Assembly (NCBI GenBank): GCA_046540335.1
Contig: JBKHFH010000004.1
Location: 1-50,310, forward strand
Length of the DNA stretch: 50,310 nucleotides
Direction: 5' to 3'
Source: Thermoplasmata archaeon
Lineage (GTDB): Archaea; Thermoplasmatota; Thermoplasmata; Halarchaeoplasmatales; Halarchaeoplasmataceae
Below the pieces are notes generated by a model. The model was not told where the DNA came from. It made no database searches and worked only from the letters and a program-made list of their open reading frames with translations. Positions 17,496 through 43,683 of the stretch are shown one piece after another. Position numbers and translations under genes: made by a program. Within the stretch, counting starts at the first letter, position 1. Every line of letters begins with the position of its first letter.

Positions 17496-17653
17496 GCCGA
17501 GGTAGCTAAGTCTGGACCAAGGCGCCGGCCTTGAGAGCCGCCAAACAGGGAAAAGTCCTGACGGGCTTTTCCTCACACTGGGGAGAGATCTCCGGTGGAT
17601 CAAGCAAGCCGGTGGTGCTATGCACCTCAGGAGTTCGAATCTCCTCCTCGGCG
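17496..17653 (+). tRNA. tRNA-Ser (TGA) with a 71-nt intron at 37/38 (intron 17536-17606)
   Basis: Acceptor stem GCCGAGG/CCTCGGC, anticodon stem CCGGC/GCCGG, long variable arm GGTGC-TAT-GCACC, T-arm AGGAG-TTCGAAT-CTCCT. BHB motif: CTTG(17530-33) pairs with CAAG(17601-04), flanked by two 3-nt bulges. Confidence 0.93.
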
Positions 17654-18027
17654 CTTTCATAACTTTTGAGCTTGGCGAGAAAGTTTGAAAGCAAGGAGAA
17701 TCTTTGATTCTTCGGCGCTTTTTCTGTTTTCTGAGTGATAGCGAAGAAAATGAAAAAGTGAGTGGAATCTTCGATTCCACGAAACCATCATTATTTTTCG
17801 AACAAAGTGAGAAAAATTGATGGCAAGAGGCTCACTCATTCCTACGTCATTCACGCCGAATCGTCGATTCGAAAACTGTTCAGAATACCAACATATTCTA
17901 AACGCTCATAAACTAAGTTTATTCACTGTGAGGAACAAGTTCCTCACGCTCACAATTCGCAGGAAACCAGAGGTTTCCGAAGAAGAAAAGGACTAAGTCC
18001 TGTGAAATCAGAGATTTGTTCGTCTTC
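17654..18027. repeat. Array of about 12 adjacent hairpins/palindromes, including three GAATC-N3-GATTC copies and several tandem-GA hairpins
   Basis: Inverted repeats read directly at 17654-91, 17695-713, 17716-60, 17762-80, 17785-823, 17857-71, 17882-99, 17908-22, 17928-47, 17962-78, 17989-18001 and 18005-17. Confidence 0.85.
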
Positions 18028-18079
18028 ACCTTAGCGCTCTTCTTCATAGACTACCCTCTGAGCCTTTATGCTAAAAGTG

Positions 18080-43131: not shown

Positions 43132-43683
43132 ATGGGAAAAAAACTGCCTAAATATCTAAAAGAAGACGAGGTCAGGAAGCTTTTGAACTCCCCAGAGAGG
43201 AAGAATGTTAGAGATAGACTCATACTGCGCATCCTTTACAGGTGTGGGCTTCGCGTCTCTGAAGTTACCTCACTGAAAATACAAGATATAAATTTCGACG
43301 AAGGGATGATCACGGTTAGAGGGGGCAAGGGGGACAAAGACAGGATCGTTCCTATAGATGACGATACCCTAGATCTCATCCAGCTCTACAAAGGTGACAA
43401 AGATAAAGGTGTGCTGATACTCTCCCAAAGAGGAAAAGCACTGTCCAATAGGCAGGTCGAGAGGATAGTCAAAAAATACGCCAAGAGGGCGGGCTTGAAA
43501 AAGAATGTTTACCCCCATATGCTGAGACACAGTTTTGCAGTTCACTCTTTGAAGTCAGGGATGAACTTGAGAAGCGTACAGAAGATGTTAGGACATGCTT
43601 CATTGACCACTACTCAGATATATCTGGATCTAACCGGCGAGGACCTGAAGGAAGATTACGAAGAACATCCACTTCCTGCCTAA
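43132..43683 (+). CDS. Tyrosine recombinase/integrase, catalytic domain only (183 aa)
   Basis: R (GLRVSE), K (GKGDKDR), HxxR (HMLRH), LGH and Y (TTQIY) are all intact; no N-terminal core-binding domain. Confidence 0.92.
   Translation: MGKKLPKYLKEDEVRKLLNSPERKNVRDRLILRILYRCGLRVSEVTSLKIQDINFDEGMITVRGGKGDKDRIVPIDDDTLDLIQLYKGDKDKGVLILSQRGKALSNRQVERIVKKYAKRAGLKKNVYPHMLRHSFAVHSLKSGMNLRSVQKMLGHASLTTTQIYLDLTGEDLKEDYEEHPLPA

Follow-up and report, generated by a model that had tools for sequence, protein, structure and literature searches.

Transfer RNA genes are the classic landing sites of integrative elements, and the matter that accumulates behind them is usually taken as debris. Cis-mobilizable elements (CIMEs) and other remnants flanked by attachment (att) sites keep their recombination sites after loss of the recombinase, the CIMEs being kilobase-sized deletion derivatives, and in E. 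coli the tyrT gene is followed by distal repeats, i.e. a 178-bp unit present 3.14 times, each with the last ~19 nt of tRNA-Tyr. Islands that enter tRNA genes split them, regenerate them and leave a displaced fragment, and in 1836 of 3919 islands the att site lies in the T-stem region (PMC4383910). Here we analyse a case in which the accumulated matter is organised, namely the hairpin stretch at positions 17654-18027 of the window (the whole 50,310 nt of the Thermoplasmata archaeon contig JBKHFH010000004.1 that were analysed), which lies directly behind the gene for tRNA-Ser(UGA).

Judged from its sequence, this stretch is a composite in which DNA modules that consist of hairpins only are stacked, with copies of the tRNA 3' end as their boundaries, and it is no single RNA gene. 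The first-pass observation holds and goes far beyond chance, and its interpretation is borne out in part. The stretch had been taken for one element of ~375 nt; instead it falls into at least five separable modules, and because the number and order of the units vary between relatives it has to be seen as composite. Three kinds of part can be told apart, i.e. cassettes of ~66 nt, a segment that we call X and a hairpin module, and the window contains three cassettes, an inverted copy of the tRNA 3' end, a module of 148 nt and a decayed end copy of 14 nt. Copies of the end of this very tRNA mark the limits of each module, the number, order and type of the modules vary between orthologous loci, and hairpin types recur behind different tRNAs. 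The best reading is that scars and cassettes have built up a composite array here, the 3' end of tRNA-Ser(UGA) being a hot spot of recombination.

The tRNA-Ser(UGA) gene (17496-17653, plus strand; Rfam tRNA match of 38.2 bits) ends in the 14 nt TCTCCTCCTCGGCG (17640-17653, plus strand), the core that recurs in the array; the window has a single exact occurrence of this 14-mer, and the whole genome has three. The gene bears an intron of ~73 nt (17534-17606), the length and position of which are kept across the genus, the tRNA-Ser(CGA) paralogue being without intron; ARAGORN detects the gene only with its intron option and wrongly labels it tRNA-Ala(tgc). Between the tRNA and the next gene (start 18166) lie 512 non-coding nucleotides. 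No conserved open reading frame (ORF) was found within 17654-18036, and a coding reading of the array was rejected, the ORFs being short and non-conserved and whole units differing among relatives.

A cassette comprises a long hairpin with tandem G.A pairs (hereafter GA hairpin), a linker that resembles CAAG, a short hairpin of the GAATC-N3-GATTC type and a tRNA-end copy of 6-8 nt. The periodicity is ~66 nt, with direct repeats 67 nt apart, in line with the repeating units of ~65 nt first described, and both the GA hairpins at 17667-17679 (T-GA-GC-TTG-GC-GA-G), 17732-17745 (T-GA-GT-GATA-GC-GA-A) and 17799-17811 (C-GA-AC-AAA-GT-GA-G) and the palindromes at 17698, 17765 and 17858 are present as they were reported. 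The GA hairpin of cassette 1 (type A; 17650-17696, plus strand; RNAfold structure; 51.2 bits with the covariance model R1, see below) has a lower stem in which the discriminator G17653 and 17654-17659 pair with 17686-17692, a 1-nt bulge (T17660), an upper stem of 17661-17667 with 17679-17685, the tandem G.A at 17668-69/17677-78 and the apex GC-TTG-GC; the same type occurs at four loci in relatives (L003, L004, L017, L019; loci in relatives are cited as L, genomes as G and contigs as C). Short hairpin 1 (17695-17718, plus strand), GGAGAATC-TTT-GATTCTTC followed by GGCGC, is the site of direct repeat D7 (TCCTCGGCGCTTT vs TCTTCGGCGCTTT, 92% identity), and the TTCGGCGC that comes after it (17711-17718) repeats part of the tRNA 3' end. 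Within the GCGC of that end copy starts the stem of the cassette 2 GA hairpin (type B; 17714-17762, plus strand; R1 31.7 bits; RNAfold -17.3 kcal/mol), which is succeeded by short hairpin 2 (17762-17780, plus strand), GTGGAATC-TTC-GATTCCAC, and a decayed end copy, CGAAAC. Cassette 3 brings a GA hairpin of type F (17781-17828, plus strand; R1 45.7 bits), also encountered at L011, L019, L025, L027 and L029. The short hairpin covaries too, e.g. from GAATC/GATTC to GAAGC/GCTTC.

Segment X (17832-17874, not assigned to a strand) contains inverted repeat I2 (20 nt, 75% complementary), and its end is an inverted copy of the region from the T-loop to the tRNA's 3' end (17854-17873 vs 17634-17653). It holds the third GAATC-N3-GATTC (17858-17870) and a GA-type apex on the minus strand; its layout is cleaner in relatives, behind tRNA-Ser (L017, L018, L033) as well as tRNA-Ala (L014, L015; here with hairpins of -23 to -26 kcal/mol). 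The module (17875-18022, plus strand) is a 148-nt string of hairpins, AACTG...GATTTGTTCG, that comes after a TTCGAA word, and its stems vary compensatorily among copies (GGAC/GTCC to GGAT/ATCC; AAATC/GATTT to AAACC/GGTTT). Behind it stands the decayed direct copy of the tRNA's last 14 nt (18023-18036, plus strand; TCTTCACCTTAGCG vs TCTCCTCCTCGGCG, 10/14); at the equivalent site the exact 14-mer is found on contig C91 of the same genome and in L002, L017, L018, L022 and L033.

Contig C91 carries a second copy of the array, behind the intron-less tRNA-Ser(CGA) and with the exact TCTCCTCCTCGGCG after the module. Over window positions 17866-18022 the two copies agree at 155 of 157 nt (98.7%), whereas the preceding ~212 nt are only 64% identical; in another species the module is 96.6% identical over 88 nt. 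The array is absent behind the orthologous tRNA in L005 and L007, it consists of four or more ~66-nt units in L003, and in L017, L018 and L033 the second half alone stands directly behind the tRNA, with the exact 14-mer on its flanks. Inserts of X plus module, 87-190 nt in length, lie between exact direct repeats of at least 14 nt at tRNA-Ser (L002, L017, L018, L022, L033), and TCCCGCYGGGTCCA stands on both flanks of such an insert at tRNA-Ala (L014). An insertion nested within a hairpin apex is present in L022. Hairpin types are common to several species, with number and order that differ at orthologous loci. At an orthologous tRNA-Leu locus of two species the flanks are ~90% identical (by eye) and yet the first hairpin is of another type, a case of replacement and not of gradual drift.

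The tRNA-end copies match the local tRNA and not the Ser end, as checked behind tRNA-Ala, tRNA-Arg, tRNA-Leu and tRNA-Glu: the repeated word is CGGCGC at tRNA-Ser, TGGGTCCA or TCCCGCYGGGTCCA at tRNA-Ala (L014, L024), GGCGTCCGC at tRNA-Arg (contig C8 of the same genome), CCCTCGCA at tRNA-Leu (L177) and GGGAGCA at tRNA-Glu (L206, L207). Since the boundaries of the units are thus copies of tRNA 3' ends, a feature that the first-pass annotation had overlooked, the array is tied to site-specific recombination at the tRNA gene.

Modules occur inside tRNA sequences as well. Homologous modules of 46-160 nt are located within the T-loops of tandem tRNA-Ala pseudo-copies (L014, L015), and inverted modules were found in T-loops of L016 and of L023, the latter with two head to tail; gene-less inserts thus split T-loop-like TTCGAA words in either orientation. 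A bulge-helix-bulge tRNA intron was considered for the T-loop module and rejected by inspection: its junctions, GGAG(A)TTCGAA/AACTG and GATTTGTTCG/TCTCC (slash, junction), allow no 3' bulge, and the terminal TTCG is paired with CGAA in a helix that abuts the T-stem. The tandem tRNA-Ala copies of L014 (G006:C27, 2950-3700) and L015 (G009:C80, 2360-2760) include the upstream spacer, and the upstream copies bear module-like T-loop inserts of 46-150 nt, one copy being otherwise near-intact.

Other tRNA genes of the same genome have related surroundings. On contig C8 (38892-39148) the end of tRNA-Arg(UCU), GGCGTCCGC, is repeated behind the gene, each repeat with a short hairpin before and a palindrome after it, and the contig stops within this array. 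A hairpin-only insert of ~150 nt stands between two copies of the tRNA-Val(CAC) 3' end, CCGGCTGAGCCCAC (C51:1-160, C39:18500-18674); the left part of the insert resembles segment X (…GGATTCGAA), and C51 and C39 both break here. A palindrome, TTGTATACAA or TTGTACACAA, lies tens of bases 3' of tRNA-Leu at C1:10846-10940 and C26:25220-25269 and in L177, L190 and L200.

The GA hairpins make up a real structural family, and its members keep to tRNA ends. A strict scan of the whole genome for stem-GA-NN-loop-NN-GA-stem gave 44 matches vs 14-22 in shuffled sequence, three of the perfect-stem matches being contained in the window. With R1, a covariance model built from 19 copies with which the best 150 first-look candidates were scored (weak copies may therefore escape), nine matches were obtained in the genome (1.89 Mb), all of which adjoin tRNA genes: three in the window, three or four on C91, two on C71 and one on C1, behind tRNA-Leu at the contig end. 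The element is not, as had been suggested, of the kind of repetitive extragenic palindromic (REP) sequences or bacterial interspersed mosaic elements (BIMEs), as its copies number only nine, all stand beside tRNAs and are not dispersed, whereas the expectation of further copies behind tRNAs was borne out in the genome and its relatives. Across 41 genomes the family was present in ~20 of the 25 that belong to the same taxonomic family, and only 3 weak matches were obtained in 16 other families of the class. Twenty further loci were fetched, and ARAGORN detected a tRNA in 13 of these (mostly tRNA-Leu, also Ser(GGA) and Val), with the hairpin starting on the same strand, 4 nt before the 3' terminus of the tRNA; the start is always within the last bases of a tRNA-end word. 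Taken together, a tRNA was detected upstream and on the same strand for 64 of 89 hairpins, 21 of which abut it, and the remainder are at contig ends or behind tRNA fragments. Many copies lie at contig ends, as repeats that break assemblies would, and whatever its function the family accounts for the contig breaks at tRNA genes in these metagenome-assembled genomes.

In an alignment of 83 distinct copies, which was fitted to the R1 model itself, 87.1% of the cells are paired vs 66.3% in shuffles and 39-67% in slid controls, and double-sided changes occur at all 16 pairs, so that the proposed covariation held. Covariation of the upper stem is biased because the seed copies were picked by a stem scan, but the lower stem, which was outside the seed selection, covaries too. 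The GA dinucleotides are near-invariant, their context on either side being Y-GA-R in ~75 of the 83 copies; covariation extends to the two base pairs at the apex (GC, AU, GU), and the loops are mostly G-N-A or G-N-N-A. Within the stems, T.G wobbles outnumber C.A mismatches (73 vs 20), which indicates folding of the tRNA-sense strand. The GA hairpin is thus under structural constraint on the tRNA-sense strand, in support of the selection on single-strand folding that the first-pass annotation proposed, and the invariant G.A, the wobble bias and the G-N-A-type loops together demand a single-stranded working form.

The 374-nt stretch as a whole also folds far better than dinucleotide-shuffled controls, with -115 kcal/mol vs -86 +/- 5 on the plus strand (z -5.6) and -107.8 kcal/mol on the minus strand (z -4.0). 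The GA motifs that were noted on the minus strand of the second half do exist, but, with the exception of 17830-17856, the sequence there is conserved without covariation, and 17830-17856 is the apex of a palindrome formed together with the tRNA 3' end. The proposed three-way junction of 17979-87 with 18019-27 is among the weaker parts of the observation: relatives do not keep the pairing, and its 3' arm is the module end plus the decayed tRNA-end copy. No Rfam or other named family matches, as had been anticipated; at permissive thresholds Rfam yielded the tRNA only, plus sub-threshold noise, the best other match being SNORD103 on the minus strand (29.3 bits vs a gathering score of 45). An archaeal C/D box small RNA (sRNA) was rejected on account of this score and of the lack of C (RUGAUGA)/D (CUGA) box pairs and guide regions, and an array of clustered regularly interspaced short palindromic repeats (CRISPR) was rejected by inspection.

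Around tRNA-Glu the hairpins occupy both sides of the gene. At tRNA-Glu(CUC) of the same genome (C71:3543-3790) GA hairpins and short GGAAC-N3-GTTCC hairpins stand on either side in mirror orientation, and G006 (L207) has the same mirror arrangement with a different cassette order. In both, each GA hairpin reads outward from CGGGAGCA, which on the 5' side is the reverse complement of the acceptor 5' strand of tRNA-Glu. Recognition of a DNA word fits hairpins on both sides of the gene, whereas a role restricted to the trailer cannot explain the 5' copies.

Integrases are found with the same kind of boundary in relatives. Islands of ~6 kb with tyrosine integrases of 418-431 amino acids (aa) are flanked there by direct repeats of the same T-loop-to-3'-end core: in L204 an 18-nt repeat of tRNA-Thr lies ~6 kb away beside a 418-aa tyrosine integrase, and in L207 a 16-nt repeat of tRNA-Glu lies 6.5 kb away with a 431-aa integrase. 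In L199 an integrase island is located directly behind tRNA-Ser(CGA), and its first bases (CTAATTTACGGGTAAA) resemble the sequence past the second core in L002. L206 (G020:C93, 3259-5203) combines, in this order, a 418-aa tyrosine integrase, a tRNA-Glu end copy, three near-identical tandem units of ~200 nt, each with two tRNA-Glu end copies, and a GA hairpin. These four loci fit the pattern of islands that split and regenerate tRNA genes (PMC4383910). The window itself encodes a tyrosine recombinase of 183 aa that consists of the catalytic domain only (43132-43680, beside tRNA-Lys); it is single-copy in every genome of the family (73-92% identity), occurs in four other families as well (67-70% identity), and was rejected as a lineage-specific partner, being present in families without hairpins.

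The explanation that we favour, with a probability of about one half, is that the array consists of small modules which lack their own integrase and which site-specific recombination at tRNA ends has deposited and reshuffled. The modules would act as miniature attP-like units made up of a short hairpin, a tRNA-end core and a long hairpin; they would enter, duplicate and swap through site-specific recombination at the tRNA end, with integrases from resident or visiting elements as the catalysts in trans. Every event would regenerate the tRNA and displace older units outward, and the GA hairpin would be retained as a working folded single strand, either as a trailer or terminator structure that the incoming unit supplies to the regenerated tRNA or as a folded recombination substrate. 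The start of the hairpin at the tRNA end makes an RNA form plausible; the alternative is a form of single-stranded DNA, which could be the folded recombination substrate or the non-template strand during transcription of the tRNA.

Several observations weigh against this explanation. An empty site, i.e. the palindrome without the module, is absent from the 41 genomes, and there is no integrase in or beside the array of the window or any copy of X plus module. No circular or extrachromosomal form was seen: viral contigs gave chance-level matches only, annotated phages and plasmids had no match to the elements, and a metagenome scan returned only two copies, both chromosomal, with no circle and no integrase neighbour. 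(The archaea in question are an uncultured lineage of the Thermoplasmata, and the sample name of one near-identical metagenome contig was read as soda-lake sediment.) A double-stranded circle of 66-190 bp would moreover be too stiff for ordinary integrase recombination, and the tRNA-end copies of the cassettes, with their 6-8 nt, are shorter than the 14-18-nt cores of real islands; the cassettes could come from unequal crossing-over or gene conversion. Finally, the tandem G.A and the wobble bias need a single-stranded function, which the favoured explanation does not provide by itself.

Among the alternatives the best survivor, which we nevertheless regard as unlikely, is that the GA hairpins are functional RNA, i.e. 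a pre-tRNA 3' trailer with a K-loop-like apex of tandem sheared G.A, possibly bound by L7Ae, which would serve class II and some other tRNAs in 3'-end formation, termination or protection, the arrays being by-products of duplication. The 21 loci at which the hairpin starts on the sense strand, 4 nt before the 3' terminus of the tRNA, speak for such a role, together with the wobble bias, the Y-GA-R context, the covarying apical pairs with their characteristic loops and the fact that the hosts are chiefly tRNA-Leu and tRNA-Ser. In 60 of the 83 copies, however, a run of T4-T7 lies in the 5' arm just before the GA, and with the archaeal mode of termination a T-run at this position should stop the polymerase before the hairpin is complete. 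Nor does a trailer agree with distal cassettes that fold as well as proximal ones, with the antisense hairpins upstream of tRNA-Glu, with most tRNAs of the genome being without a GA hairpin, or with the exchange of whole hairpin types at orthologous loci in the midst of similar flanks.

Rather improbable is that the modules move in the form of single-stranded DNA, with mobilisation by an HUH enzyme such as those of IS200/IS605, REP-RAYT or IS91. Insertion would then take place 3' of a short word (TTCG/TTCRAA in the T-loop, YTCG in the acceptor end) and lead to head-to-tail arrays, with the element's own 3' end (…TTCG) regenerating the target word. Such an enzyme would suit elements that are purely hairpins without terminal inverted repeats and strand-specific in structure, units and modules that end in (T/A)CG (the module coming after TTCRAA and ending in GTTCG), the two head-to-tail modules of L023, the two orientations in T-loops and the nested insertion at the hairpin apex in L022. 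Of an insertion of the IS200/IS605 type, the hairpins, the conserved …TCG end and the position of the module after TTCRAA are present; the boundaries of the module are ambiguous because the tRNA-end words are repeated, and no empty site was found. The Y1 transposase partner (TnpA or RAYT) that had been proposed did not turn up: PF01797 has 0 matches in the genome itself (the assembly is 94% complete, so that this absence is not absolute) and matches in only 17 of the 41 relatives, where the Y1 loci share no sequence with the hairpin elements. The sole Y1 gene near an array, of the IS200/IS605 type (L173; G023:C11, 1488-2420), lies ~340 nt behind a GA-hairpin cassette of tRNA-Ser(GGA) and has G+C-rich end hairpins of its own. 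The 14-nt direct repeats of the target, moreover, do not agree with an insertion that duplicates nothing, unless a tRNA fragment had served as the target from the outset.

We hold it to be just as improbable that X plus module (87-190 nt) and the ~66-nt cassettes are complete mobile satellites, i.e. hairpin-only integrative elements that travel as folded single-stranded DNA and are inserted into tRNA T-loops or ends by a host or helper recombinase. The short hairpin and the tRNA-end core, paired with the inverted copy, might in that case mimic the double-stranded T-arm/acceptor of the target tRNA gene.

A slightly poorer candidate still is that nothing but local duplication, unequal crossing-over and the correction of quasi-palindromes in the A+T-rich intergenic DNA beside tRNAs produced the arrays, without any dedicated mobility or function. 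The three L206 units and the repeated tRNA-Ala units of L014 look like local duplications, and templated correction in quasi-palindromes can imitate compensatory change. Correction has nonetheless left the G.A/G.A mismatch in place in ~80 diverged copies, one hairpin type occurs behind different tRNA-Leu genes and in different species, the module is 97-99% identical across loci and species with neighbouring sequence of 64-88%, and the family is confined to tRNA ends. Hardly credible, finally, is a derivation from casposons, with miniature elements integrated at the tRNA 3' end by a Cas1-type casposase: the target of the A. boonei casposon at tRNA-Pro is said to be similar to the 14-nt tRNA 3'-end repeat, but the patchy distribution of Cas1 does not fit (only 13 of the 41 relatives, mostly with ~330 aa, the size of the CRISPR type), no terminal inverted repeats were seen by inspection, and there is no sequence link to Cas1 loci.

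What makes the array worth attention is a lineage-wide hairpin family of ~45 nt with invariant tandem G.A, clear covariation and a strict association with tRNA ends. If the units are mobile by themselves, they would make up a class of miniature integrative elements that is new, and they would provide archaeal tyrosine recombinases with a minimal substrate; should they be satellites of folded single-stranded DNA, they would be the archaeal counterpart of the folded sites of CTX phage and attC and smaller than any other integrative element known. A hairpin that acts as RNA would be a signal in the tRNA trailer that has not been described before and that L7Ae may read. In any case, such arrays should not be annotated as single non-coding RNA genes.

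A comparison with known systems begins with tRNA-gene islands. As in the Islander principle (PMC4383910), the tRNA is intact and a displaced copy of its 3' end, from T-loop to discriminator, marks the far boundary (10/14 at 18023-18036, exact on C91 and in relatives), and the integrase-bearing islands of relatives use the same core as the array. An integrase inside the bounded segment is found only in those larger islands and not at 17654-18036; the inserts of the array are, unlike islands, 66-370 nt in length, without genes or integrase, composed of hairpins only and stacked in arrays, and their units occur on the 5' side of tRNAs as well, in mirror orientation. With CIMEs the array shares short att-bounded DNA without a recombinase, but its units measure tens to hundreds of nucleotides and their fold is conserved. 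The tyrT repeats of E. coli are likewise tandem repeats right behind a tRNA gene, each with the 3' end of that tRNA; they represent, however, one locus in one species, with neither a covarying hairpin family nor spread among tRNAs. The palindromes of REP/BIME-RAYT systems and those derived from IS200/IS605 are also extragenic and imperfect, with conserved mismatches and a strand specificity that suggests a single-stranded form, whereas the family described here is low-copy and strictly tRNA-adjacent, has no cognate Y1 in the genome and carries copies of the target end on its flanks.

At the level of the fold, the K-loop or K-turn (bound by L7Ae; C'/D' of archaeal C/D sRNAs) may share the tandem sheared-type G.A beside a terminal loop, in a Y-GA-R context, and on sequence grounds the 3' strand of the hairpin, R-Y-G-A-R-A-A, appears close to box C (RUGAUGA). 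Here, by contrast, two covarying Watson-Crick pairs close the loop, so that a symmetric 2x2 internal loop is equally possible, and there are no guide regions or C/D boxes. Folded single-stranded att sites (attP of CTX phage with XerCD; attC of integrons) resemble the hairpins in that structure is kept while sequence varies, in the bulged base and the strand bias, and in the head-to-tail arrays beside a fixed site; the inverted target copy in X, too, can fold against the direct copy. They differ in that no attC R-box consensus is seen by inspection and no integron integrase lies next door, and integron attC sites or clusters of attC sites lacking integron-integrases (CALIN) were rejected, as the 83 aligned hairpins have no R''/R' boxes (RYYYAAC … GTTRRRY) and there are no ORFs between the units. 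The locus is best described, then, as an array, specific to this lineage, of att-bounded mini-modules that consist of hairpins only and occupy a hot spot of integration at a tRNA: displaced tRNA fragments, integrase-less remnants and extragenic palindromes are known already, and what is new here is the conserved K-loop-like hairpin, the architecture of the cassettes, the mirror arrays and the gene-less T-loop inserts.

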